Positions 24,959 through 64,000 are shown, numbered from the stretch's first letter. The stretch is 64,000 nucleotides of DNA from Thermoplasmata archaeon (GCA_028864975.1 JAGWLG010000002.1:24043-88042), one strand, 5' to 3'. Numbers and translations: made by a program. The notes: generated by a model from the letters alone, not told the origin.

Positions 24959-25255
24959 TCAGCTGGTTCGCATCTCCACGGAAGCGACGAGGAGCGAAAC
25001 CCCCGCGAGAGATGCCCCGGAGCTGATCGCCGTGCACCAGAAGAGGTCCCCTGTCGCGAAGTACATCGTGGTCCACGCGAGCGGCGTTCCGATTGCCATG
25101 ACGGCCAAGCCGAGCCCGAGCAAGAGCATGGGACGCGAGTGGCGGGACCGGTACGCCACGACCGCCCGTACCACGAGGAACCCGCCAAGAGCGGCCAGGG
25201 CCACGAAGAGGACCCAAAGCGGCCAGAGCGCGAGGATCTCAACGACTTCGCTCAT
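24959..25255 (-). CDS. small membrane protein (3 TM)
   Basis: 98 aa; 4-bp overlap with upstream ArsR gene stop, suggesting co-transcription. Confidence 0.4.
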   Translation of the reverse strand: MSEVVEILALWPLWVLFVALAALGGFLVVRAVVAYRSRHSRPMLLLGLGLAVMAIGTPLAWTTMYFATGDLFWCTAISSGASLAGVSLLVASVEMRTS

Positions 25256-25677
25256 CGCTCACCACCCTTCCTCAGCTCCTCCCAAAGGTCCGCCATCCGC
25301 TCGGACGCAAGGACCCGGAACTTCGCCAGGACCTGCACGCCCCCGCCCCCGAAATGGACCGTTCCTTCGGCAAGGAGCGAGCGGAACAGGTCCGTGCGCC
25401 TCCCCTCGGTCGAGAGCACGGAACGTTGGACCCCCACCAGTCCTGCCCCCTGAAGCTCCCCGAGCTTGCGATAGACCGAGCTCTGGGGGACCGAGAGCTC
25501 CCGCAAGAGATCTTGGACCGTACGGGGCCGGTCGTTGAGCAACGTGAGGATCGCACGGCAGGAAGGGTCTCCCAGGGCCGCCAAGATCGCCTCCTCACGC
25601 TCGACGGAGACTCTGCCGAGCTGGGTAGCGCCAAGGTCCTGCGCTTCATGCTGTCCATCGTTACCGGGATCGGACAT
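25252..25677 (-). CDS. ArsR-family winged-helix transcriptional regulator
   Basis: 'CRAILTLLNDRPRTVQDLLRELSVPQSSVYRKLGELQGAGLV' ArsR HTH. Confidence 0.65.
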   Translation of the reverse strand: MSDPGNDGQHEAQDLGATQLGRVSVEREEAILAALGDPSCRAILTLLNDRPRTVQDLLRELSVPQSSVYRKLGELQGAGLVGVQRSVLSTEGRRTDLFRSLLAEGTVHFGGGGVQVLAKFRVLASERMADLWEELRKGGER

Positions 25678-25901: not shown

Positions 25902-26795
25902 ATGGAGGGAACGGGCCCCGTCGAGCTCACGCGGGAGGTGAACGGCGCTCCCGCTCACTTCGTGGAGGAGGGGGCCGGTCCCTCGCTGCTCTTCGTGCAC
26001 GACCTGATGGAATCCCTCGTGGCGTTCGGCCCCCTGGTGCACGAGCTAGGGCCCCGCTATCGGAAGGTCTTGGTGGACCTCCCGGGTCTGGGGAAGACCC
26101 CGGTGCCAGAAGGTTGGGACTACACCCTCGCTTCGTACGGCGCGTTCCTGAACGGGGCGTTGCGAGAGTCGGCGTGCCGCGACACGACCCTCATCTTGCA
26201 TGGGTTCGGGGTCCTGGTGGGGTTGGAAGCGCTCTCGGTCGAGGCGGGCGAGGCCTCCCGACGCGTCTCCCGCGTGGTGCTCCTGAACGGCCCGCTCTAC
26301 GACGACGACTCCGCGAGCGTGCTCTCCTTCCTGAAGCGGGGGCCCTTCGAGGCGTTGACCTCGGCACCGCCCATGGACCTCGGGACGTACCGACGGCTCG
26401 TCCTGAAGCGGTTCGGGGACCCGACCTACTTCGACGAGGGCCAGGTCGAGGACCTCTACCACGGCTGGGGACGACACGGGCCCTCGACCGTGCGTGCCGT
26501 CGCGCGACACCTACCGGAACTGCGGGAAGCCCTTCCCCGCCTCCGCTCGAGCCTCTCGAAATGGGGAGGACCGGTCTACGTGTACTGGGGAGAGGACGAC
26601 CCCTTCCTCGGGAGCGAGGCCGCGCACCGGCTGGGGCGCGAGGTGCGCCGGGCGAAGGTCCTGATCTTCCCCGAGGTCGGGTACCTCCCGCACGAGGAGG
26701 CTCCACGCTCGATCTCCGACCATCTGCGGAAGGTCGTGCGCGTGGCGAGGCCCCGTGCCCTTCCTCCCGGACCCTCGGCGCCTCCTGTCGCGTAG
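25902..26795 (+). CDS. alpha/beta-fold hydrolase
   Basis: 'GPSLLFVHDLMESLVAFGPLVHELGPRYRKVLVDLPGLGKT' then 'LILHGFGVLVG' nucleophile-elbow-like region; start at MEGTGP (25902). Confidence 0.65.
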   Translation: MEGTGPVELTREVNGAPAHFVEEGAGPSLLFVHDLMESLVAFGPLVHELGPRYRKVLVDLPGLGKTPVPEGWDYTLASYGAFLNGALRESACRDTTLILHGFGVLVGLEALSVEAGEASRRVSRVVLLNGPLYDDDSASVLSFLKRGPFEALTSAPPMDLGTYRRLVLKRFGDPTYFDEGQVEDLYHGWGRHGPSTVRAVARHLPELREALPRLRSSLSKWGGPVYVYWGEDDPFLGSEAAHRLGREVRRAKVLIFPEVGYLPHEEAPRSISDHLRKVVRVARPRALPPGPSAPPVA

Positions 26796-26796
26796 C

Positions 26797-27591
26797 ATGC
26801 CCGAGTTCGACCTCGTCGCGCCGCTCTACGACGCCACACGTCGGCCGCCCTCCCCGGCCGAGCTGGGGGCCGTCGCGGAAGCCTTGCAGACGTGCACCGA
26901 GGTTCTCGAAGCCGGCGTAGGGACAGGGAGGTTCGCGAAACCGCTCTCCGACCGAGGCTTCCACCTCACGGGGGTCGACATCTCCCGGGAAATGCTGAAG
27001 AGGGCCGGCGAGAAGGGCCTGCCGCGGCTTCTCCAGGCGGACGTCCACCGGCTCCCGTTCCGTGATGGGGCCTTCGAGGCGAGCCTCATCATCCATGTCC
27101 TGCAGCTCATCCCGGAGCCTGCGCGCGCGCTCGAGGAGCTCGCGCGGGTGGCAAGGGAGCGCGTGGTCGCCCACCTCCCCGACCACCGATCGGGGGGGCT
27201 CGCGCTGCGAGGAGAACTGCTGCAGCGCTACGGCGAGATCGCCGCCGAGATGGGGCACCCACTCCCCCCACGTCGTCGCTTTTGGGAGAACACCGAGCGC
27301 GTGCTGAGGGACCTCCCACCGGAGCGCGTCTTCGTGGTGGAGGAGGACATCAGCCCTCCGACGGACCCCGAGATGCGATGGAGGGACCTGCGCGGGTTCG
27401 GGGGGCTCATCACGGTCCCCCCCGAAATGCACGAACGGATCGTGGCAAGGCTCCTGGAGGAAGGTCGAGGGGATGAGCTCCCGCTCGGACCGCGGACGCG
27501 CACCCTCCGTGTGGCGGTCTGGGAAACGTCAGGGCTCCGTCAGCTCATGAAGAACCGTTCTGAACGACGCAACGGGGGTTTGCGCTTCTGA
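26797..27591 (+). CDS. class I SAM-dependent methyltransferase
   Basis: 'VLEAGVGTGRFAKPLSDRGFHLTGVDISREMLKRA' motif I/II, 'FEASLIIHVLQLIPEP'. Confidence 0.65.
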   Translation: MPEFDLVAPLYDATRRPPSPAELGAVAEALQTCTEVLEAGVGTGRFAKPLSDRGFHLTGVDISREMLKRAGEKGLPRLLQADVHRLPFRDGAFEASLIIHVLQLIPEPARALEELARVARERVVAHLPDHRSGGLALRGELLQRYGEIAAEMGHPLPPRRRFWENTERVLRDLPPERVFVVEEDISPPTDPEMRWRDLRGFGGLITVPPEMHERIVARLLEEGRGDELPLGPRTRTLRVAVWETSGLRQLMKNRSERRNGGLRF

Positions 27592-27684: not shown

Positions 27685-27701
27685 TTTAATGCAATGTAGT
27701 C

Positions 27702-28064
27702 ATGTGTAGTTCCGTGGTAGAGGATCAGGTCACGACGATCCGTCTTGGACGCGACATGCTCGCGCTCTTCGACCGCATGGCCAAGAAGCTGGAGGTTGAG
27801 CGTTCCACCCTCCTTCGGCGGGCCCTGATCAAGGGGGCGAGGGCTGTCCTGCTGGACGAAGCCCTGTCGCAGTACCTCCGAGGGGACCTGAGCGCAGGGG
27901 CGGCCTCCGAGTGGGCCGGCGTGAGCTACATCGAGTTCCTGGACGAACTGAAGGCACGACGGCTCCCCTATCTCGCCGACAACGAGGGCATCGCCGAGGA
28001 GCTGGCCGAGTTCAGGTCCAAGACCAAGACCCAGGTGAGTTCGGGTGCGCGCCGTCATCGTTGA
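27702..28064 (+). CDS. UPF0175-family antitoxin (partner of DUF3368 PIN)
   Basis: RHH-like 'TTIRLGRDMLALFDRMAKKLEVERSTLLRRALIKG' then 'GDLSAGAASEWAGVSYIEFLDELKARRLPY' typical of UPF0175; overlaps the next gene by 20 nt; AT-rich TATA-like element about 25 nt upstream. Confidence 0.6.
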   Translation: MCSSVVEDQVTTIRLGRDMLALFDRMAKKLEVERSTLLRRALIKGARAVLLDEALSQYLRGDLSAGAASEWAGVSYIEFLDELKARRLPYLADNEGIAEELAEFRSKTKTQVSSGARRHR

Positions 28065-28539
28065 CACATCTGCCCTCATCTTCCTGGGACGGCTCCACCG
28101 CCTCCGCCTCGCCCAGGTCCTGGGCAGCGTGGTCGTCCCAGGACCTGTGATGGAGGAGTTGGTCCGCGGACGTGGCAAGGATCCTGACACGGTCGGCCGG
28201 GTGGAGGACTGGATCCGGCGCGAGCGTCTGGAGGTGCGCGCCGTGCGGCTACCTCCGGGGTTCCACCCCAGCCTCGGCGTGGGGGAACGCGCGGTCCTGC
28301 GCGCGGCTTCCGAGGAGAAGGACCCGGTCCTCCTCGTCGACGAAGGACCCGCTCGCCGGGTCGCCAAGCATCTTGGATATCGGGTCTTGAGCACCCCCTA
28401 CGTCCTGCTGGAAGGCGTTCGCGTGAGGGCCATCACTCCTCTCGAAGGGCAGATGGACCTCGACCGGTTGGTCGCCTTGGGCTACTTCCTGGATGCCCGC
28501 CTCTTTGCGGAACTCAAGACGATCCTCGGGGAACTCTGA
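28045..28539 (+). CDS. DUF3368-family PIN-domain toxin
   Basis: 'VIVDTSALIFLGRLHRLRLAQVLGSVVVPGPVMEELV', 'GVGERAVLRAASEEKDPVLLVDEGPARRVAKHLGYRVLSTPYVLL' match DUF3368 PIN (acidic D6, E38, D-rich core). Confidence 0.7.
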   Translation: MRAVIVDTSALIFLGRLHRLRLAQVLGSVVVPGPVMEELVRGRGKDPDTVGRVEDWIRRERLEVRAVRLPPGFHPSLGVGERAVLRAASEEKDPVLLVDEGPARRVAKHLGYRVLSTPYVLLEGVRVRAITPLEGQMDLDRLVALGYFLDARLFAELKTILGEL

Positions 28540-28659
28540 GCCGCGCGTTCTTCGACTTCCGCGCGTTGGAAGCATCCGCAGCCAGGACCGCGGCTCAGAG
28601 CGCACGGGACTTCTATCAACCGATGTGAGTGGAGCAGGGTAGGGCGCTGGCCAAGCTCT

Positions 28660-31011
28660 ATGGAGAGGACCCGCGCTCCTCCGTTCGTGAACGAGGATGC
28701 ACCGCCAGGCTCGGGGGGGCCCCCTCATGCCGTCGCCTTCCCGTCGGAGCTCCTCGAGGAGCTTGACCGGGGCAGGGGCTCCCTCCTGCTCCTCCACGGG
28801 GGCACGGAGGTCTCTCGTGGTCGTGAGCTCGATGACCTCGCCAACGCCGCACGGAGGCGCGGCCTGGAGGCGGAGATCCTCGTGGCCGACCCGTTCGAGC
28901 AGGAAGTGCCCTTCGGTGCGCTCCTCCCTTGGCTCTCGCGGCTGCTTCCATCCCACCACCACGTGAGCGGCCGGGACGCCCCGGCGGAGGCCTGGCTTCC
29001 GCTTGTCGCGCTCTCCGGCCTTCTGGCCACCGAGGGGGCACGCCAGGCAACGCTGGACCTTTCCCCCGCCGCTTCCGCCGTCCCAGAGCCTTCCCACGAG
29101 GGGGCCGAGAACGGTCCCACCGGGGCGCGGGGCTCGGAGAGGCCGGGTCCTCCCCCCGACCTCGAAGCTGAATGGCAGTTCGTGCCACCGGAGGACCTAC
29201 GCGCGGTCCTTCTGGAGCTGGTCGAGGGCCGGGCGCGCAAGGGCCCGACGGTGGTCTGCGTTCGCCACGCCGAGCACTTGGACTTGGCGGGTCGGGAGTG
29301 GTTCCAGCAGCTCGCCCGCGGGCTGGAGCGGCTCCCCCTCCTTGTCTCCCTCTCCTTCGATACGGAGGGGCCCGAGCTCGCCGGGTGGCGTGGCGTGGGA
29401 CCCTCCGCCGGCCCGTGCGAGCAGACCCTCCCGCCTGACCCGGGTCGTTCCCCATCCTCCTCCCCGGGACCCCACCCTACGCCGCCGCGGGCCCTCTCGG
29501 CCGAGGACGGAAGACTGCTCGGGGCGGTCGCGCTGGCAGGTCCGGACGCCCATCCCGTCGCGCTCTCCCAAGCGCTGGGCACGCCTCCCGATTGGACGGA
29601 GGCGGGACTCTCCCATCTTGCCGCCCAAGGCTGGATCGAGAGGGAAGGGGGCGTCTGGCGTCTTTCCTCCCCCGACCGACGTGCGGAGGTGCTCAAAGAG
29701 CTAGGCCCCGCCACGGTCGCCCAGCTGCACCGTGGGCTAGCGGCCATGCTGGAGAAGCTCCATCCGGTCCCCCGAGGGAAGGTCCTCTTTCGCCTGGGGG
29801 ACCACTGGGCGGAGGCGGGGGGGGTCGAGTCGGGGTTCCCCCGGCTCCTGGCGTCGGCCGTGGAGTGTGAGCGCTGGGGCGCCCCAGTCATGGCGGAGAC
29901 ACGCCTGAGGCGAGCTCTTCTTCTGGCCCAAGGGGAGGCGGGAGCCCGGGGTCGTGAGCTCGAGGAGATCGCCTACTCGCGGATCTCTGCGGTCCGCTAC
30001 CGTTCCTCCGATCCGTCGGGTGCCCTCGAGGCGGTCCGCCGCGCCCTGGCGCTCGCCCGGGGGCGGGGGACGAGCGTCCATCAATGGGCCTTGTACGTCG
30101 CTCGTGCTGGGATGGCCCAGGTGGACCTGGGAGAGGACCCCGAGGCCGAGCTCACCGCGACGCTCGAGAAGGTGCGGGGTCAGTTCCCCGAGGTGGAGGC
30201 CGAGCTGCTGAGGGTCCGAGCGGTCAATCGATTCTCCCACGGCCGCTCGGGGGAGGCGATCGATGATGCGGAGCGGGCGTGCGCGCTGCTGGAGGGTTCC
30301 CCGAACGCTGCGGCGCGCGTGCGCGTCCAGATCGCGGCGGCGGGGACCTGCCTCTTCAGCGGTGGAGACCCGGAGAAGGCCCGGGAACACCTCTTGCAGG
30401 CCCTCGACCTCCGCGGGGGCGTGGAAGGTGGGCCCGACCAGGGGCTCATCGTCGCGGTGCTGGACCAGCTCTCCCAGGTGGAGTTCAACCTAGGACGGTA
30501 CGCCCCGGCCCTCGCGCGAGGGGAGGAGGCCATCCGGGAGGCGCGACGGCTGGGGACGCGACAGGGCCTGGCCGACGCCCTCGGGAACACCGCGGAGGCG
30601 GCCTGCGCGGCGGGGGACCCCGCCCGCGCGGCGGCCCTGGCCGAGGAGCTCCGTGGGCTCTGCTCTCGGTACCGCATCCCCGAGCCGGACGCGAGCCACC
30701 TCCAGCTCCTCCTCGTCGAGGGGCTGGTCGCCGAGGCGGGGGGGGACCCGAAGGAGGCCCTCGTGAGGTTCGAGCGCCTGGTCGCGGTGGCAGAGAAGGC
30801 GGGGAAGTTGAACTACCTCGGCCAGGCCCTGATCCAGAAGGCCCTCCTCCTGGAGCGGACCGGGGACCGGAACGGGGCGCGGGCCCTGATCGGCCGTCTC
30901 CACCGGGGCGGGTTGGTGAGGAACCTCCCCGCGGACAACCGGAAGAAGCTCGCCGGTCTCGAGGCGAGGTTAGCCCCCGCGGCATCCGAAGGATCGACCC
31001 GACAGCGATAG
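28660..31011 (+). CDS. AAA_16/STAND-like protein with degenerate P-loop and C-terminal TPR-like array (pseudo-ATPase paralogue of the 39663 gene)
   Basis: Aligns with the N-terminus of the 39663 ORF (ELLEELDRGRGSLLLLHGGTEVSRGRE vs EAERSRLQEGVDRARGGQGNSWVISGPAGVGKTR; PFEQEVPFGALLPWL vs PFFPFEQILHRL; TVVCVRHAEHLD vs LLLLLDDFQWAD) but Walker A Lys and Walker B Asp-Asp are replaced; C-terminal approx. 400 aa Ala/Leu/Arg-rich helical repeats. Confidence 0.6.
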   Translation: MERTRAPPFVNEDAPPGSGGPPHAVAFPSELLEELDRGRGSLLLLHGGTEVSRGRELDDLANAARRRGLEAEILVADPFEQEVPFGALLPWLSRLLPSHHHVSGRDAPAEAWLPLVALSGLLATEGARQATLDLSPAASAVPEPSHEGAENGPTGARGSERPGPPPDLEAEWQFVPPEDLRAVLLELVEGRARKGPTVVCVRHAEHLDLAGREWFQQLARGLERLPLLVSLSFDTEGPELAGWRGVGPSAGPCEQTLPPDPGRSPSSSPGPHPTPPRALSAEDGRLLGAVALAGPDAHPVALSQALGTPPDWTEAGLSHLAAQGWIEREGGVWRLSSPDRRAEVLKELGPATVAQLHRGLAAMLEKLHPVPRGKVLFRLGDHWAEAGGVESGFPRLLASAVECERWGAPVMAETRLRRALLLAQGEAGARGRELEEIAYSRISAVRYRSSDPSGALEAVRRALALARGRGTSVHQWALYVARAGMAQVDLGEDPEAELTATLEKVRGQFPEVEAELLRVRAVNRFSHGRSGEAIDDAERACALLEGSPNAAARVRVQIAAAGTCLFSGGDPEKAREHLLQALDLRGGVEGGPDQGLIVAVLDQLSQVEFNLGRYAPALARGEEAIREARRLGTRQGLADALGNTAEAACAAGDPARAAALAEELRGLCSRYRIPEPDASHLQLLLVEGLVAEAGGDPKEALVRFERLVAVAEKAGKLNYLGQALIQKALLLERTGDRNGARALIGRLHRGGLVRNLPADNRKKLAGLEARLAPAASEGSTRQR

Positions 31012-39662: not shown

Positions 39663-42600
39663 GTGGAAGAGGGCCTGCCTCTCGAGGATATGTCGCCCAC
39701 GCCGTCGGGGCCCGCCGCGGCCCCCGTCTTCGTCGGCCGTGAGGCGGAGCGGAGCCGGCTCCAGGAAGGGGTCGATCGTGCCCGCGGAGGGCAGGGGAAC
39801 TCTTGGGTGATCTCGGGCCCCGCGGGAGTCGGGAAGACGCGATTGATGCAGTGGCTGGAGGGGGAGGCCCAGACCCAGGGGTTCCGGGTCCTCTGGGGGT
39901 ACTGCCTGAAGGAGGACGTCTCCCCGTTCTTTCCCTTCGAGCAGATCCTCCATCGGCTGGGCCCTCGGGGTGGGTCCCGCGGTGGGGCCGGCGCGGCCGA
40001 GGCGGGGGTGGGGGACGTCCCGTTCCAGGTCGACGAGGCGGCCGCCGTGGTCATCTTCGAAGAGGAGAAGCCGAAGCGCATCTTCGACCACGCGTCGGCG
40101 CTCTCGAAGGCGCATCCCTGCCTCGTGCTGGGCCGGGACCGTCCTCAGTCGGTGCGGCAGAGGTTCCCCGAGCTCGCTCCCTCCTCGCGAGTCCTTTGGC
40201 TGTCGAGGACCGAGGGGGAGGAGGTGATCCCTCCGAGCCAGCTGGACGCGTTGGGCGAGCTCGCGGAGAAGCACCTCCGCCAGCACGAGGGAGGCGTCGT
40301 CGCGCTCGCGGGCATCGAGTACCTGGTGAGCCAGAATACGTTCCTCCCGGTGCTGCGGCTCTTGCAGTTCCTGAGAGACGTCGCTGAGGGGACAGGGGGG
40401 AAGCTGCTCCTCTCGGTCCACCCCGCGGCCTTCGATGCCCGGGAGTTCTCGCTGCTCGAGGCCGAGGGGGAGGTGGTGAAAGCCCCGTCGGCGGCGTCGC
40501 CCACCGGAGGGAGCGCCGAGGAGCGGCCGTCGGGCCGGGGGACGAGCGAGCCCTCCTCCGCCACGCTCCTCCGATACGTCCAGACGTTCGAGGCGGAGTC
40601 CCGCAACCGACCGCTCCTGCTCCTGCTGGACGACTTCCAGTGGGCGGACGAAGGCTCGGCGCTGGCCTTCCAGTTCCTCTCTCGGAACCTTCGGCGGGCC
40701 CCCGTCATCCTCGTGGCGGGCGTCCGCGACGCCGAGACGCGGACCACGGTCGCGGCGGGAGGCGGGAGCCCCCAGGAGGGGGTCGTCGTCGATGTCATGG
40801 ACAACCTGGACCGCGAAGGGATCCTGCGGAGGCTGCCGCTGCGGGGGCTCGACCCGGGGGAGGCGCGCGACCTCCTCGAAGGCTACCTGGGGGCACCGCT
40901 CGCGCCGGGGGACGTCGAGGGGGCGGCGCAGACCCTGGTCGAGCTCACCGGAGGGAACCCGTACCACCTCCTGCAGGTCGTGAGCCAGCTCAAGGAGGAG
41001 GGGCTCGCCCGGGTCGAGGGGGGCCGGGGGCTCATCTCGCTCCCTGCTCCGACGGAGGTTGGGTCGTCGTTCGCGGGCTCTCGGGGGCGCACCTCGCTCC
41101 CGACGATCCGGCGCCTGGTCTCTCGGCAGCTCGAAGGCCTGCCGAAGGAGGACCGCGCCCTTCTCGAGACCGCGTCCCTCGTCGGGCGGGAGTTCGACCT
41201 CCCTCCCCTGGCGGACGTTCTAGGTCGCTCCCGGGAGGACCTGAAGGCCCGTGCCGAGAAGCTCACCACGCGGCCCCCGCTCCTCACGGCACGGGAGGAC
41301 GGGAAGCGCTACGCCTTCCAGAACCCGATCGTCTGGGAGGTGGCGAGGGAGGAGCTCTCGGCCGAGGACCGACGCCGGTGCTCCCGGACCCTCGCGGACT
41401 GGTTCACCTCGCGTCGTCCAGAGGAGACCGAGACCATCGCGCGCCTCTACTACGAGGCCCGGGACCGGACGAAGGGGCTTCCGTGGATCCGCAAGGCGGC
41501 CGACAAGGCGCTCCGGACGCAGGCGAGCGATGCGGTCGAGCGTTACGTTCGGTGGGCGGAGGACCTGCTGCGCGGGAGCGGGGAGGACTGGGAGGGACGC
41601 GTGATGGAGGGGGTACGGCTCGCGGAGGGGATCCGCGAACAGGGGGCTATCCGCGACGCCCGACGGCTCCTGCAAGGGTTGCTGGAAGCGGGGCCCCCCG
41701 ACAAGCTCCGTTGGCGGGTCCAGAGGGCGCTGGTCATGGCCCAGGCGGACATCGATGCGCGCGAAGCCCGCACGCGGCTCGAGGAGCTCGAACGCAGCCT
41801 CCAGGCAATGCCCGAGGCGAAGATGCCGGAGTGCCGCTCGCTCCTCGCGGTGACGCGGGCCCACGTGCTGACCCTCGCGGGCTCGTGGGAGGAAGGGCTC
41901 GCCGCGGCGCGCGAGGCCCTCCAGCTGCTCTCGGAGGTAGGAGGGGGAGACCCGGCCGAACGTGCGCAAGCCCTCTACGCGGCGGGGTGGTGCCTGAAAC
42001 AGCTGGGACGGCTCGAGGAGGCGCGCGAGCAATTCGCCCAAGGTCGCGCCGCGGCGGCGGTCGCCGAGCGACCGGGGCTGCTCGCCTCCCACATGAACGG
42101 CGAGGGGGCGGTCGCCCTCCTTCGAGGGGACCTCCCGGCCGCGCGCCGGGCCTTCGAGGACGCGGTCGAACAGTGCCGCAAGACGGGGAACGTCGCGAGG
42201 GTCGCCTCGATCCTGCTCAACATGGCCGAGGTCGCGTTGAACCTGGGGGACCTGGAGGCCGCCCGGAAGGCGGCCGAAGAGGCGCAGGCGCTGGGGGAGC
42301 GCTTCGACGTCCCTCGGGTCGCCGCCAACGCGACCTTCCGCATGGGCGTGATCCACCAGAAGGAGAAGCGATGGGAGGAGGCTCGCACGGCGTTCCAGGC
42401 CGCGCTCGAGCGCTACGACCGCTTGGGCCTGGCCGACCTCGCCTACTCCGCCCGGATCAACCTCGCGCTCCTGCGCGGGATCATGGGCGACCCTCAGTCC
42501 GCCCTCGTCGAGCTCGAGGAGATGGTCCGCAAGAGCGTGGGCGTCGACCTCAGGAACCTACCGCTCTATCACCAGGCCCGGGCGGAGCTCAAGGGGTTCA

Positions 42601-42815
42601 CCGGCGACTCCGACGGAGCGAAGCGCGAGCTCGAGCGGGGGCTCGAGGCCGCGCGTTCGACGCAGAACCTCCTCTCGCAGGCTTCCCTGCACGAAGCCCT
42701 GGGGGCGTGGGAGGATGCGCACGGGGACCCCGCGCGGGCCCGGGTCCAGCGCGAGCAGGCCGAGGCGCTCTTCCGTCAATGCGGACTACCGAAAGGGAGC
42801 ACCTCGCGCGGCTGA
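39663..42815 (+). CDS. STAND-type AAA_16 ATPase with DUF835-like domain inserted between Walker A and Walker B, and C-terminal TPR array
   Basis: 'PVFVGREAERSRL...WVISGPAGVGKTRLMQWL' (AAA_16 start plus Walker A), 'PFFPFEQILHRL'; residues approx. 150-270 'RVLWLSRTEGEEVIPPSQLDALGELAEKHLRQHEGGVVALAGIEYLVSQNTFLPVLRLLQFLRDVAEGTGGKLLLSVHPAAFDAREFSLLEAE' match the DUF835 pattern; then 'LLLLLDDFQWADEGSALAFQFLSR' (AAA_16 Walker B/hhhhDDxhWaD); about 550 aa of TPR-like helical repeats follow. Confidence 0.8.
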   Translation: MEEGLPLEDMSPTPSGPAAAPVFVGREAERSRLQEGVDRARGGQGNSWVISGPAGVGKTRLMQWLEGEAQTQGFRVLWGYCLKEDVSPFFPFEQILHRLGPRGGSRGGAGAAEAGVGDVPFQVDEAAAVVIFEEEKPKRIFDHASALSKAHPCLVLGRDRPQSVRQRFPELAPSSRVLWLSRTEGEEVIPPSQLDALGELAEKHLRQHEGGVVALAGIEYLVSQNTFLPVLRLLQFLRDVAEGTGGKLLLSVHPAAFDAREFSLLEAEGEVVKAPSAASPTGGSAEERPSGRGTSEPSSATLLRYVQTFEAESRNRPLLLLLDDFQWADEGSALAFQFLSRNLRRAPVILVAGVRDAETRTTVAAGGGSPQEGVVVDVMDNLDREGILRRLPLRGLDPGEARDLLEGYLGAPLAPGDVEGAAQTLVELTGGNPYHLLQVVSQLKEEGLARVEGGRGLISLPAPTEVGSSFAGSRGRTSLPTIRRLVSRQLEGLPKEDRALLETASLVGREFDLPPLADVLGRSREDLKARAEKLTTRPPLLTAREDGKRYAFQNPIVWEVAREELSAEDRRRCSRTLADWFTSRRPEETETIARLYYEARDRTKGLPWIRKAADKALRTQASDAVERYVRWAEDLLRGSGEDWEGRVMEGVRLAEGIREQGAIRDARRLLQGLLEAGPPDKLRWRVQRALVMAQADIDAREARTRLEELERSLQAMPEAKMPECRSLLAVTRAHVLTLAGSWEEGLAAAREALQLLSEVGGGDPAERAQALYAAGWCLKQLGRLEEAREQFAQGRAAAAVAERPGLLASHMNGEGAVALLRGDLPAARRAFEDAVEQCRKTGNVARVASILLNMAEVALNLGDLEAARKAAEEAQALGERFDVPRVAANATFRMGVIHQKEKRWEEARTAFQAALERYDRLGLADLAYSARINLALLRGIMGDPQSALVELEEMVRKSVGVDLRNLPLYHQARAELKGFTGDSDGAKRELERGLEAARSTQNLLSQASLHEALGAWEDAHGDPARARVQREQAEALFRQCGLPKGSTSRG

Positions 42816-43029: not shown

Positions 43030-43812
43030 ATGTCCGGCGCTCTGGCCTCCGCGCTCCGGTGTCCCAAGTGCGGGACAGGAACGCTCGCCAAGCTCGCCAC
43101 CGGATGGACCTGCGAGCAGTGCGGGTTCGCTCCCTTTGCAGGGAGGGAGAAGGAGAAGGTGCCGCCACCGTCGCCGATCAATCCCCGCACGGTCGACCCC
43201 GCAGGCCGCCCCTTCTCCGCGTCCGACCTGGCGGCGGACGCCCCGCCGAAGGTACGGTTCAACTCCCTCGAGAAGCGCCCGGAGGCCCTTCGGGTGCAGT
43301 GGATGCCGGCGGGCGCGGGCCTCCGCTACGCTTCCCGCGTTTCCCTCCAGACCGTCCCCCCGGGGGAGAACGTGCCCCTCGAGCTCCTCGCCCACAATCA
43401 AGGGCCCCATCCCCTCTCGCTCGAGTACTACGTCCAGCTCACCGGGAGAAGCGGGGTGGTCGCGGTCTCGCGCGTCTACTCGGGCGACCTTCCTCCCGAG
43501 GGCGTCCTGGACGCGACGGTCCTACTGCCCCCTCCCGACGACCCGGAGGGCTGCCGGGTCTCCACCTATTGCCGGGCGCTACCGGCCACCGGACGCCTGC
43601 AACCCGAGCTCCAGCCGCCCGGTGTGGCCCCGGTCCAGGGGAGCGTGAGCCTACCGGTCCAGCCGACCGACCCGGACGTCAAGTTCCTCACGTCGGTCCG
43701 CTGCCCTCGCTGCGAGAACAGGATGGCGTGGGTGCCCGGAGGGCCCCGCAGGGCCCGGGCGTGGGTGTGCGACGCCTGCCAGCATCGGGTCGAGACGGGT
43801 CTGCTGGGTTGA
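43030..43812 (+). CDS. double zinc-ribbon protein (N- and C-terminal CxxC-x(n)-CxxC), hypothetical
   Basis: 'CPKCGTGTLAKLATGWTCEQCG' at N-terminus and 'CPRCENRMAWVPGGPRRARAWVCDACQ' at C-terminus flank a approx. 200-aa Pro-rich middle. Confidence 0.55.
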   Translation: MSGALASALRCPKCGTGTLAKLATGWTCEQCGFAPFAGREKEKVPPPSPINPRTVDPAGRPFSASDLAADAPPKVRFNSLEKRPEALRVQWMPAGAGLRYASRVSLQTVPPGENVPLELLAHNQGPHPLSLEYYVQLTGRSGVVAVSRVYSGDLPPEGVLDATVLLPPPDDPEGCRVSTYCRALPATGRLQPELQPPGVAPVQGSVSLPVQPTDPDVKFLTSVRCPRCENRMAWVPGGPRRARAWVCDACQHRVETGLLG

Positions 43813-62323: not shown

Positions 62324-63598
62324 GTGGGAACGGTGAGAGAAGGTCTACTGTTCCCCGGTGTGGTCCTCACGGTCCTGATGATCCTGTTCGCCTTCGCTCC
62401 TCTCCCGAACGCTCCGTCCGGGCAGGTGAGCTCGGCCCGGGCGCTCACGGTGAAGCCCCCCGCCTTCCCCTACTCGGAGGAGACGCCGATCAGCGTCAGC
62501 TGGAACGGGGGGAACGCTAGCACCTTCCTCGAGATCATCCCGTGCCTGGACTCGAACTGCTCTGCCGGGCCGAAGGCCCCCGTCACCGCGCCGCTCACGG
62601 TCAACGGAGGGGCCGTTGTGGCCAACGGGAGCTCGGGCGGCTTCACGGTCTGGGTCTCCACGACGCTGAGCCTGCTCATCGTGACGAACTCTCTCGCGCC
62701 GCTCAGCGTCACCGTGACGTGGAACGAGATGCCGGAGTTCGGGTTGCTCTGGGAGATCCTGACGGTCGTGGGCATCCTCCTCACGATCGGCGGGATGGTG
62801 CTCCCCGAGCACGGGGCCCCCCGCGGGCACCACCGGCGGCTTTCCTACGCCCACTGGAGGCACCACGCCTTCGCGCTCCCCCCTCACCTTCCCTCGACGG
62901 GGCTGACCTGCTCCGCCTGCGGGCTCTCGGACATCCCGCACGAGGACGACTTCTGCCCGCGTTGCCAAGCCCCCTTGCCGCGGGCCTCGACGGTCGTCCC
63001 CGGTCCTCCGTCGACCGCGGCGGCCGCCCCGGCCTCCCCCGCACGCCCCCGTGGCGCGGAGATGGCGGCGGGGACCGCCGCGGCGGCGTCGGCGGCCGGC
63101 ACGGTGGCCGCCGTGCCCCCCAAGAAGCGCGTCGCGGTGAACAAGTCGAAGGTCGCGGGGCAGTCGCTCTCCGTCGCCGACCCCGACCCGCTACGACCCT
63201 GGCGCGTGATGAAGGGCCTCGGGTTCGCTCCCGAAGAGGCCGTCGTCTTCACCCGCGAGGACCCGGTGGTCCTGGAGGAGAAGTACCACCTGACCGCTCA
63301 GCAGGTCCACATCATCAGCCGCACCGAAGGGGAGGGGACGATCTCCCCCTCGGAGTGCGACAAGATCGCGGACCTCGCCGACCAGCATCTTCGCAGCCAC
63401 GCGGGGGGCGTCGTGGTCCTGACCGACCCGAACTACTTCGTGACCCACGGTGGGTTCGACGTGCTTCGTAGGTTGGTGCTCGCGATCCAGGACCACGCCC
63501 GCGAGCAACGCGGGACCTTCATCCTCGCCTTCAACCCGTCGGTCTTCACGCCCGACCAGCGAGCGCAGCTCGAGGAGCGGATGCGCAAGGTCGTGTGA
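62324..63598 (+). CDS. bitopic membrane protein with Cys-pair ectodomain, cytoplasmic zinc ribbon, Ala/Pro-rich linker and C-terminal DUF835-like domain (family member D)
   Basis: TM 'LLFPGVVLTVLMILFAFAPL', 'IPCLDSNCSAGPK', TM 'LLWEILTVVGILLTIGGMVL', 'CSACGL...CPRCQAP'; C-terminus 'VVFTREDPVVLEEKYHLTAQQVHIISRTEGEGTISPSECDKIADLADQHLRSHAGGVVVLTDPNYFVTHGGFDVLRRLVLAIQDHAREQRGTFILAFNPSVFTPDQRAQLEE' aligns with the DUF835-like segment of the 39663 ORF. Confidence 0.6.
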   Translation: MGTVREGLLFPGVVLTVLMILFAFAPLPNAPSGQVSSARALTVKPPAFPYSEETPISVSWNGGNASTFLEIIPCLDSNCSAGPKAPVTAPLTVNGGAVVANGSSGGFTVWVSTTLSLLIVTNSLAPLSVTVTWNEMPEFGLLWEILTVVGILLTIGGMVLPEHGAPRGHHRRLSYAHWRHHAFALPPHLPSTGLTCSACGLSDIPHEDDFCPRCQAPLPRASTVVPGPPSTAAAAPASPARPRGAEMAAGTAAAASAAGTVAAVPPKKRVAVNKSKVAGQSLSVADPDPLRPWRVMKGLGFAPEEAVVFTREDPVVLEEKYHLTAQQVHIISRTEGEGTISPSECDKIADLADQHLRSHAGGVVVLTDPNYFVTHGGFDVLRRLVLAIQDHAREQRGTFILAFNPSVFTPDQRAQLEERMRKVV

Positions 63599-64000
63599 CC
63601 GACGGCATTACCCCTGCTGCACCGCTCCGATTCCGTCCGACCCGACGCCTCGAGCGCTCCCCCCATGGGGAGCGGCTGTTGGAGGCGGCGCTCGAGGTCG
63701 CTCCGGCCTTCCCCGAGCTTGCGGGAGAGGTCCGGTTGGACCTGCTCCCCAGCTCCTCCCGCTACCGTGGGCTGACCTTCGCGCTGGAGCGGCCGCCGAG
63801 GGTGGCCGTTCGACCTCACAGCCGGACGCCGATCGCGCTCCGCGCGACGTTGGCGCACGAGTTCGTCCACCTGCTGCAGCCCCCCCATGGGGACATCCCC
63901 GGAGGGGAGCGCTCGTGCGACCTCTACGCGATGGCGAGAGTGGGGAGCCGATACCCGCACCCCCCCGCCTATCTTCGACTTCCCCGGGGGCTCGCCCGCG
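63595..64000 (+). CDS. SprT-like/zincin-like metallopeptidase-domain protein, 3'-truncated at window end (not in ORF track)
   Basis: Frame 1 open from GTG overlapping the upstream stop (GTGTGA) to the window end with high GC3; 'RTPIALRATLAHEFVHLLQPPHGD' contains HExxH in a SprT-like context. Confidence 0.4.
   Translation, partial: MTDGITPAAPLRFRPTRRLERSPHGERLLEAALEVAPAFPELAGEVRLDLLPSSSRYRGLTFALERPPRVAVRPHSRTPIALRATLAHEFVHLLQPPHGDIPGGERSCDLYAMARVGSRYPHPPAYLRLPRGLAR

Follow-up and report, generated by a model that had tools for sequence, protein, structure and literature searches.

A toxin–antitoxin cassette next to a STAND-TPR gene with degenerate NTPase motifs in a Thermoplasmata genome

The DNA considered here (the window) is a stretch of 64,000 nucleotides from a Thermoplasmata archaeon (GCA_028864975.1 JAGWLG010000002.1:24043-88042). 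Three co-directional genes follow one another near its middle: a toxin–antitoxin (TA) pair, which consists of a UPF0175 antitoxin with a ribbon-helix-helix (RHH) domain and a PIN toxin, and a gene which encodes a 783-residue protein of the STAND type, with a degenerate NTPase domain and a TPR array. A previous interpretation of the same DNA, made from the sequence alone (the sequence-only reading), had placed them in a defence island. The analysis described below points to two separate units which are probably neighbours by insertion. The features on which it relies are the following.

27685..27710, + strand: putative promoter/operator-like motif, conserved at the same position in the related TA loci L004–L008
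27714..28064, + strand: antitoxin, RHH plus UPF0175/COG2886, 116 residues (Pfam, starts of homologues, NCBI call)
28045..28539, + strand: PIN toxin, COG2405 / DUF3368 / PDC-S70, 164 residues (PADLOC, precomputed PF11848, AlphaFold2 (AF2) and Foldseek)
28063-28065, 28285-28287 and 28339-28341, + strand: codons of the predicted catalytic residues D7, E81 and D99 of the toxin (invariant in the alignment)
28534..28600, + strand: perfect 12-nt inverted repeat, which straddles the toxin stop codon and extends into the intergenic spacer
28660..31011, + strand: pseudo-NTPase STAND-TPR protein, 783 residues (Pfam TPR_12, clade alignments, profile search, AF2)
residues ~29-260 of this protein, + strand: degenerate NTPase domain, AAA_16-like
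28795-28821 (residues 46-54), + strand: degenerate Walker A, HGGTEVSRG (alignment to intact relatives)
28897-29169 (residues 80-170), + strand: disordered low-complexity linker of 90 residues (AlphaFold)
29251-29268 (residues 198-203), + strand: degenerate Walker B, VVCVRH (alignment to intact relatives)
29500-29703 (residues 281-348), + strand: winged helix (AF2)
residues ~350-770, + strand: TPR array (TPR_12)
39663..42815, + strand: STAND ATPase of 1050 residues, outside the unit, used as a comparator (Pfam AAA_16, DUF835, TPR_MalT) and called the 39663 protein below

The window is GC-rich (66–72%), and high GC gives many overlapping open reading frames (ORFs) on other frames, which is a usual artefact. 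The antitoxin, toxin and 783-residue ORFs look coding, because their GC contents at the third and second codon positions (GC3 0.80–0.84, GC2 0.43–0.54) follow the pattern of the real genes of the window and because they have homologues at 38–77% identity. NCBI metagenome-assembled genomes which bear the label 'Euryarchaeota archaeon' (locus tags KGJ23_) encode proteins 100% identical to the 783-residue protein and to the toxin, and the gene order of the window recurs in GCA_028866665.1 and GCA_028867515.1. The 783-residue protein has all its nearest relatives, within a species-level genome set, in 'Thermoplasmata archaeon' genomes.

The antitoxin is composed of an N-terminal RHH domain, a UPF0175/COG2886 helix-turn-helix-like (HTH-like) domain and a C-terminal tail. 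Both domains pass their Pfam cut-offs: RHH_1 scores 29 bits (cut-off 20.5) over residues 11–43 (nt 27732–27830) and UPF0175 (PF03683) scores 34.2 bits (cut-off 27.9) over residues 49–102 (nt 27846–28007). An aCcr1 identity was rejected (NCBIfam, 23 bits for a cut-off of 60), the match being attributed to generic RHH similarity. A mechanical ORF call, followed by the sequence-only reading, starts the antitoxin at ATG 27702, which gives 120 residues. However, the real start is most likely GTG 27714 (116 residues), because ATG 27702 falls within the conserved non-coding motif described below, the first residue of homologous antitoxins (about 112 residues, with both domains) is the equivalent of V5, and the NCBI product in the source genomes has 116 residues.

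The toxin ORF starts at GTG 28045 and overlaps the end of the antitoxin ORF by 20 nt. Its N-terminus, MRAVIVDTSALIF, is typical of PIN proteins. In local Pfam searches the PIN model (PF01850) stays below threshold (17 bits for a cut-off of 23.6, E=0.0096) and DUF3368 gives no match. In the protein database, the identical protein and 10/10 homologues have a precomputed assignment to PF11848 (PF11848.14, DUF3368), and the local DUF3368 search finds 4 of the 11 members of the toxin family (best E=3.5e-10). The toxin also matches six PADLOC models of PDC-S70, the best of which, PDLC05071, covers residues 1–160 of 164 (E=1.1e-20). The AF2 model, built on an alignment of 11 sequences, has a predicted local distance difference test score (pLDDT) of 96.4, and Foldseek matches it to PIN domains of the PDB at probability 1.0: AF0591 (1o4w), SMG6, VapC from Shigella and M. 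tuberculosis, and SSO1118 (2mdt), the structure which represents COG2405. Searches of PDB sequences with the toxin or with the profile of its family gave nothing meaningful, and a search of viral contigs returned no relative of it.

Residues D7, E81 and D99 are invariant in the 11 toxin sequences. In the model, D7 lies just after strand 1, E81 at the N-terminus of helix 4 and D99 just after strand 4, and E38, E100 and S116/T117 are auxiliary residues. According to Matelska et al. 2017 (PMC5499597), PIN-like nucleases nearly always have acidic residues at the positions of D7, E81 and D99. The predicted D7/E81/D99 active site is intact, judging from the alignment. The description of the pair as an RHH-containing UPF0175 antitoxin overlapping a DUF3368-type PIN toxin by 20 nt is therefore borne out by Pfam, PADLOC, the fold and the coordinates, and the catalytic acidic residues, the absence of which the sequence-only reading had named among the facts that would count against it, are all present.

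Makarova et al. 2009 (PMC2701414) predicted that UPF0175/COG2886 is an antitoxin of the HTH type for PIN toxins, and UPF0175 was reported exclusively beside COG2405/DUF3368 PIN proteins (PMC5499597). The pair of the window has the sequence features of a COG2886(UPF0175)–COG2405(DUF3368 PIN) type II TA module and is read as a new member of this known, bioinformatically predicted family. It shares with the VapBC-like COG2886–COG2405 family, which is common in archaea, the upstream position of the antitoxin, the overlapping ORFs, the association of UPF0175 with a COG2405-type PIN domain and all three core acidic residues. It differs from it by the additional N-terminal RHH domain fused to UPF0175, which is conserved in the subfamily, and by a candidate promoter, made of a TATA-like box and TGTAGT repeats, which is conserved and can be defined for this subfamily. 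PDC-S70 is a PIN-encoding, predominantly archaeal candidate defence gene, the validation of which is pending (PMC12988326). It is among the candidate defence genes that are most enriched in archaea, and is not validated. The toxin matches the PDC-S70 models over its full length, but PDC-S70 is defined as a single gene, whereas the gene of the window is the toxin half of a two-gene module located among housekeeping genes.

Homologous pairs are present in the metagenomic contigs L004–L008, with 73–75% identity for the antitoxin and 67–70% for the toxin. According to the gene calls they all have both antitoxin domains and the 20-nt overlap, and their flanking genes differ. The DNA similarity between the window and these loci sets in sharply some 30 nt before the coding region, exactly at the 26-nt motif TTTAATGCNNTGTAGTNNTNNGTAGT (27685–27710), and nothing is shared beyond the toxin stop codon, where the conserved cassette DNA ends. 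The motif occurs once in the window, for 0 occurrences expected from shuffled sequences, and once per TA locus in L004–L008, at the same offset upstream of the antitoxin. It contains a TATA-like TTTAAT (27685–27690), then two direct TGTAGT repeats (27695–27700 and 27705–27710) which are spaced by 10 nt from start to start, and it ends 3 nt before the GTG start.

From its content and position, the motif would comprise the promoter (the TATA-like box) and the operator (the TGTAGT repeats) of the TA cassette. The repeats would be the operator of the antitoxin RHH domain, which, bound at this place, would prevent initiation. The 3 nt between the motif and GTG 27714 fit a leaderless or near-leaderless archaeal transcript for the antitoxin. 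For an archaeal RHH-UPF0175/PIN module, the comparison of these loci yields a candidate promoter/operator which is conserved, and corrects the start codon.

The 783-residue protein begins about 120 nt downstream of the toxin (28660, the toxin ending at 28539), as the sequence-only reading had it; NCBI places the start at GTG 28687, which gives 774 residues. It has the layout of a STAND protein: an NTPase-like domain, a winged helix and a C-terminal array of repeats. In Pfam, TPR_12 is significant (E=1.8e-14), AAA_16 (PF13191) reaches 24.1 bits over residues 31–229, below its cut-off of 32.6, and no domain other than the AAA_16-like, winged-helix and TPR regions is found, hence no effector. The AF2 model of the N-terminal part shows a beta-alpha-beta core around the degenerate P-loop (pLDDT 82–87), a Walker B strand region at pLDDT ~70–84 and a winged helix at 81–93. 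The best PDB matches of this model in Foldseek are AAA+ proteins of the ORC/Cdc6 type, together with the winged-helix domains which they carry, and winged helices of the MarR or Crp kind. Similarly, an N-terminal STAND profile run against PDB sequences gave only weak matches to Crp/MarR winged helices.

A word-based database search with the 783-residue protein returned four homologues (38–46% identity). With its 373 N-terminal residues, an exhaustive profile search of 1.8 billion proteins gave 1359 matches at E<=1e-3. GxxxxGK[ST] is lacking in the ~18 clusters which are closest (700–780 residues, same architecture) and present in almost every more distant match. Among these distant matches are many longer STAND proteins with several domains, and a large set of ~750-residue proteins in which GPPxSGKS lies near residue 27. 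The profile of the closest group finds Walker-A-bearing STAND proteins at E-values of 1e-16 to 1e-7, and the relatives P0034, P0035 and P0037 pass the AAA_16 cut-off with 60.1, 46.9 and 43.4 bits. The homology of the 783-residue protein to AAA_16/STAND NTPases is thus seen at the level of profiles.

The motifs were compared between the degenerate group (17–18 sequences) and 21 aligned ~750-residue relatives which keep the Walker A lysine.

Walker A Lys: Arg in 17/17 of the clade; Lys in 21/21 of the relatives
Gly before the Walker A Lys: kept in 1/17 of the clade; 19/21 of the relatives
Walker A Ser/Thr: kept in 6/17 of the clade; 21/21 of the relatives
Walker B, first acidic residue: 11/18 of the clade; 21/21 of the relatives
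Walker B, second acidic residue: 7/18 of the clade; 20/21 of the relatives

The protein of the window is among the most degenerate members: it has S-R-G in place of G-K-S/T, and its Walker B pair is R-H. The claim that both the Walker A lysine and the Walker B DD pair are replaced is correct when the protein is aligned to relatives with intact motifs. Within the 'DDxxxxD' region, the aspartate at position 208 does not vary: it is kept throughout the clade, by its five nearest neighbours and by the 21 Lys-bearing relatives. In a rough neighbour-joining tree the degenerate sequences form one clade, and the nearest neighbours include GxxxxGRS as well as GxxxxGK[ST] forms. The degeneration is therefore a conserved character of the clade and not a private decay of one gene. 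Considering the replacement of Lys by Arg, the loss of the Mg-binding Ser/Thr and of the second P-loop Gly, and the unconstrained Walker B acidic pair, the 783-residue protein is predicted to be unable to hydrolyze ATP in the canonical way. The label 'catalytically dead' is read from the motifs, and the invariant arginine leaves room for some phosphate or nucleotide binding.

The clade has so far been found only in Thermoplasmata-type archaeal metagenome genomes: all the members with a named source organism come from Thermoplasmata or from unclassified euryarchaeal metagenome genomes. It expands by paralogy within genomes, since the source genome and the Thermoplasmata genome WH2.bin11 each have two members (in the source genome the second one is P0165, KGJ23_06160, 744 residues, outside the window; in WH2.bin11 they are L010 and L011). 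The STAND protein belongs to a known superfamily, of which it represents a degenerate, lineage-specific branch that, to our knowledge, has not been described before. This branch, with its invariant replacement of Lys by Arg, is a natural experiment on STAND function without hydrolysis.

The 39663 protein has intact motifs, GPAGVGKT and LLLLLDD, and matches AAA_16 (E=4.3e-19), DUF835 (E=4e-22) and TPR_MalT in Pfam. Its DUF835 domain (residues 134–268) sits between Walker A and Walker B of AAA_16; the 783-residue protein has its disordered low-complexity linker at the matching position. The sequence-only reading was right that this protein lacks DUF835 and retains the TPR array. It also aligned its N-terminus with the NTPase region of the 39663 protein. 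Direct comparisons do not support this alignment: with BLASTP the N-terminus shows no significant similarity to the 39663 protein (E 0.17–0.35), only the TPR region being significant (4e-6), and hhalign gives E=1.4e-3 at a probability of 17%, over the Walker B segment only. By contrast, with a bridging profile made from the degenerate and intact ~750-residue proteins the match reaches E=1e-23 and covers two pieces of the 39663 protein (residues 31–99 and 265–638) which flank the DUF835 insert. The proposed check against AAA_16 has the same mixed outcome: the score of the protein is below the cut-off, and the homology to STAND proteins emerges with family profiles.

Since the similarity emerges only through this profile, the two proteins are best described as distant paralogues in one superfamily, not as a recent duplicate or a parent and its copy. 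The idea of an inactive copy of the 39663 ATPase does not hold: the 783-residue protein belongs to a separate conserved clade, and its nearest intact relatives are other ~750-residue STAND-TPR proteins, not proteins of the DUF835-bearing 39663 type. With AAA_16-type STAND proteins that carry TPRs (MalT/LAL/AfsR-like, and the 39663 protein) it shares the order of NTPase-like domain, winged helix and TPR array, the 'EVPFGALLPW' and 'xxLD' motifs which flank the Walker B strand, and homology at the profile level. It differs from them by its Walker A (GGTxxxR instead of GxxxxGK[ST]), a non-acidic Walker B, the absence of a DNA-binding or enzymatic effector domain and of the DUF835 insert, and a short stretch between the NTPase core and the winged helix, with no clear helical lid in the model.

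Conserved linkage between the TA pair and the STAND gene is lacking among the loci inspected, namely eight STAND-clade loci (the window, L001–L003 from metagenomes and L009–L012 from three Thermoplasmata genomes, the last four found by a related-locus search with an alignment of five sequences) and four TA contexts (the window, L004/5, L006/7 and L008). No homologue of the antitoxin or the toxin lies within 5 kb of the clade gene, or up to the contig end, in L001–L003 and L009–L012, and no clade member or STAND gene lies near the TA pair in L004–L008. The co-localisation in other genomes, which the sequence-only reading had suggested looking for, is thus absent from the seven other STAND-clade loci and the three other TA contexts. 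It recurs only in near-identical genomes and in short contigs which carry the identical toxin protein. In L001, L003 and L009–L012 the nearest callable flanking genes are on the strand opposite to the clade gene, which suggests that the clade gene is monocistronic there.

The genes which surround the unit in the window encode an ArsR-type regulator, an alpha/beta hydrolase, an S-adenosylmethionine (SAM) methyltransferase, an M1 aminopeptidase, a GNAT protein, two MetE-like proteins, a nicotinamide mononucleotide (NMN) adenylyltransferase and a MarR protein. Synteny is not shared: none of them is found beside either unit elsewhere, apart from a hydrolase in L008, some 5 kb away from the TA pair, which gives a weak match at 24% identity. 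When ten neighbours were searched with PADLOC, the only matches were five Csa3/CARF models on the ArsR-type HTH protein (25252–25677) and one mad2 model on the methyltransferase (26755–27591, E=9e-9), which are read as reflecting shared generic HTH and methyltransferase domains. No obvious terminator was seen in the 120-nt spacer between the toxin and the STAND gene, in a scan which used bacterial promoter and terminator models and was uninformative for an archaeal host.

Taken together, it is quite likely that the locus consists of a mobile, autonomous type II TA cassette inserted upstream of an unrelated, independently expressed gene, the product of which is a hydrolysis-incompetent STAND-TPR scaffold or sensor. 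The independence of the two units is supported by the lack of conserved linkage, the lack of shared synteny, the opposite-strand neighbours of the clade gene in most of the other loci and the restriction of the adjacency to near-identical genomes and to short contigs with the identical toxin protein. This reading is founded on the observed domain identities, motif states, clade conservation and lack of conserved linkage.

The first unit (27685–28539) would be a self-regulating cassette, the short conserved promoter of which drives an essentially leaderless bicistronic mRNA. Most likely, the RHH domain of the antitoxin would bind the TGTAGT repeats, one helical turn apart, and repress its own promoter, while the UPF0175 domain and the C-terminal tail would bind and block the toxin. 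Toxin translation would be coupled to antitoxin translation through the 20-nt overlap. Once free, the toxin would act as a Mg2+-dependent PIN endoribonuclease which uses D7, E81 and D99. The second unit (28660–31011) would be a separately inherited, independently transcribed STAND-type gene, the product of which most likely acts as a TPR scaffold or sensor independently of nucleotide hydrolysis.

Several points weigh against this interpretation. The toxin of the window is below every local Pfam cut-off. The sample of inspected loci is small, with only eight STAND loci and four TA contexts, and read-through transcription across the 120-nt spacer may occur. The model of the NTPase domain is moderately confident (mean pLDDT 63) and its PDB matches are weak (best E=2.6e-4, TM-score 0.27). 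The invariant arginine could also mean that phosphate or nucleotide binding is kept, in which case 'dead' may overstate the loss.

This last point leads to the main live alternative, which concerns the second gene only and is compatible with an inserted cassette: the 783-residue protein would be a nucleotide-binding, non-hydrolysing switch, in which Arg53 contacts the phosphate, and its partners in trans would be intact STAND paralogues encoded by the same genome. Such a switch is possible, though on balance unlikely. Walker A mutants in which Lys is changed to Arg often bind ATP without hydrolysing it, and the Arg is invariant (17/17) at the Lys position while nearby P-loop positions drift. 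The invariance of D208 in the clade and its relatives, the GxxxxGRS forms which adjoin the clade, and the presence in the same genome of a second clade member (KGJ23_06160) and of at least one intact STAND-TPR protein (39663) go in the same direction. However, most clade members have lost the Mg-coordinating Ser/Thr and the Gly before the Lys position, the Walker B pair is Arg-His in the protein of the window, and there is no conserved adjacency to intact STAND genes.

The proposed switch can be likened to the sensor/helper NLR pairs of plants in which the P-loop of the sensor is dispensable. In plants, P-loop-degenerate sensor NLRs work with intact helper NLRs. The likeness, drawn from general knowledge, lies in STAND motifs which are degenerate yet conserved in a lineage and in the presence of intact paralogues in the same genome. 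The differences are the archaeal host and the absence of a head-to-head gene arrangement and of an integrated decoy domain. In a bolder version, the whole Lys-to-Arg clade would consist of dedicated non-hydrolysing STAND sensors which signal via intact paralogues such as the 39663 protein, and the TA cassette inserted in this population would in addition feed read-through transcription into the sensor gene. We consider this doubtful; if true, the clade would be an archaeal counterpart of the sensor/helper NLR pairs.

The reading of the TA pair and the dead STAND-TPR protein as one defence unit or island, in which the inactive paralogue is a regulator, decoy or scaffold for the 39663 ATPase or the PIN toxin, is very improbable. 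Its arguments are that the three genes are co-directional with only 120 nt between toxin and STAND gene, that the toxin matches a candidate defence model of PADLOC, and that an active STAND-TPR gene lies 8.6 kb downstream. In addition, three homologues of the toxin weakly match the Pfam model PIN-TPR-GreABC (E=0.015), which describes PIN proteins associated with TPR systems, and in L006 a TA pair of another kind, VapBC, comes after the gene of a TPR protein which is similar to the C-terminus of the 39663 protein. On the contrary, the adjacency is missing in 7/8 STAND-clade loci and 3/4 TA contexts, and the conserved DNA of the TA cassette stops at the toxin stop codon. No other STAND paralogue, active ones included, adjoins any clade member in the inspected loci. 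The neighbours are housekeeping genes without defence-system matches beyond generic domains, and the 783-residue protein has neither a PADLOC match nor an effector domain. The defence-island context is unsupported, and the role of regulator, decoy or scaffold for the active ATPase is a speculation.

The comparison with antiviral STAND proteins (Avs) and bacterial NLR-like defence proteins goes in the same direction: membership of the STAND superfamily and a TPR-like C-terminal array are common to both, but the 783-residue protein has no N- or C-terminal effector (nuclease, SIR2, TIR or protease), no PADLOC match and no defence neighbourhood, and its NTPase motifs are degenerate. A TA pair beside a STAND/TPR gene is thus not in itself evidence for a defence island, an over-reading which this locus helps to clear up.

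It is scarcely credible that the 783-residue ORF was mis-called in GC-rich DNA or belongs to a functionless pseudogene in decay: the loss of the catalytic motifs, the low-complexity, low-confidence segment of 90 residues and the many spurious long ORFs of high-GC DNA might suggest it, but full-length homologues (700–780 residues, 28–47% identity) exist in many metagenomes and at four loci of three Thermoplasmata genomes, motifs are conserved along the whole length of the protein, and its codon-position GC is typical of the genes of the window.

The inverted repeat at the end of the toxin gene (28534–28600) has the arms CTCTGAGCCGCG and CGCGGCTCAGAG, separated by a 43-nt spacer which holds two direct repeats of CCGCGCGTT. 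Its RNA fold has a free energy of -39 kcal/mol, with a z-score of only -1.8, and L004, L006 and L008 do not conserve the repeat after their toxin genes. It is therefore not called a terminator or a recombination site.

Two other observations concern the surroundings of the 39663 gene and its DUF835 insert. Just downstream of the gene, 43030–43812 encodes a 260-residue protein with several CxxC zinc-ribbon motifs and a weak match to the Cas12f1-like TNB zinc ribbon (28.5 bits). Near the end of the window, a separate ORF (63242–63607) is 34% identical to the DUF835 insert (tblastn E=1.9e-13).

The TA pair of the window is not in a cassette array bounded by tRNA repeats, unlike its homologues in L004, L006 and L008. 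Matches to the repeat described below do not exceed chance around it (20 for 21 expected, none nearby), and no tRNA was found in the window; the only Rfam match is the tRNA of L004. In these related Thermoplasmata contigs, at L004:1621-8900 (GCA_027328905.1 DAHWSL010000128.1), L006:2000-6600 and L008:80-6600, the pair lies within arrays of ~1-kb cassettes, most of which are other TA pairs, such as MNT/HEPN and VapBC, along with small unknown pairs. In L006, the first part of the contig (1–1978) encodes the TPR protein mentioned above, which at its C-terminus shares 32% identity with the C-terminal TPR region of the 39663 protein. Its gene is directly followed by the VapB/VapC pair and then by the tRNA-repeat array; both the TA family and the STAND lineage are different from those of the unit described here.

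An integrase was looked for in the retrieved part of the L004 array and not found. Each cassette of the arrays ends with a same-strand copy of the last 13–24 nt of tRNA-Val(TAC), TCCGCCCCGGCCCA, and two longer flavours of the repeat occur. A tRNA-Val(TAC) gene heads the L004 array (1621–1693). The arrays look like the product of repeated, tandem site-specific insertion or like an integron-like cassette array, and they point to a mechanism of TA mobility in these archaea.

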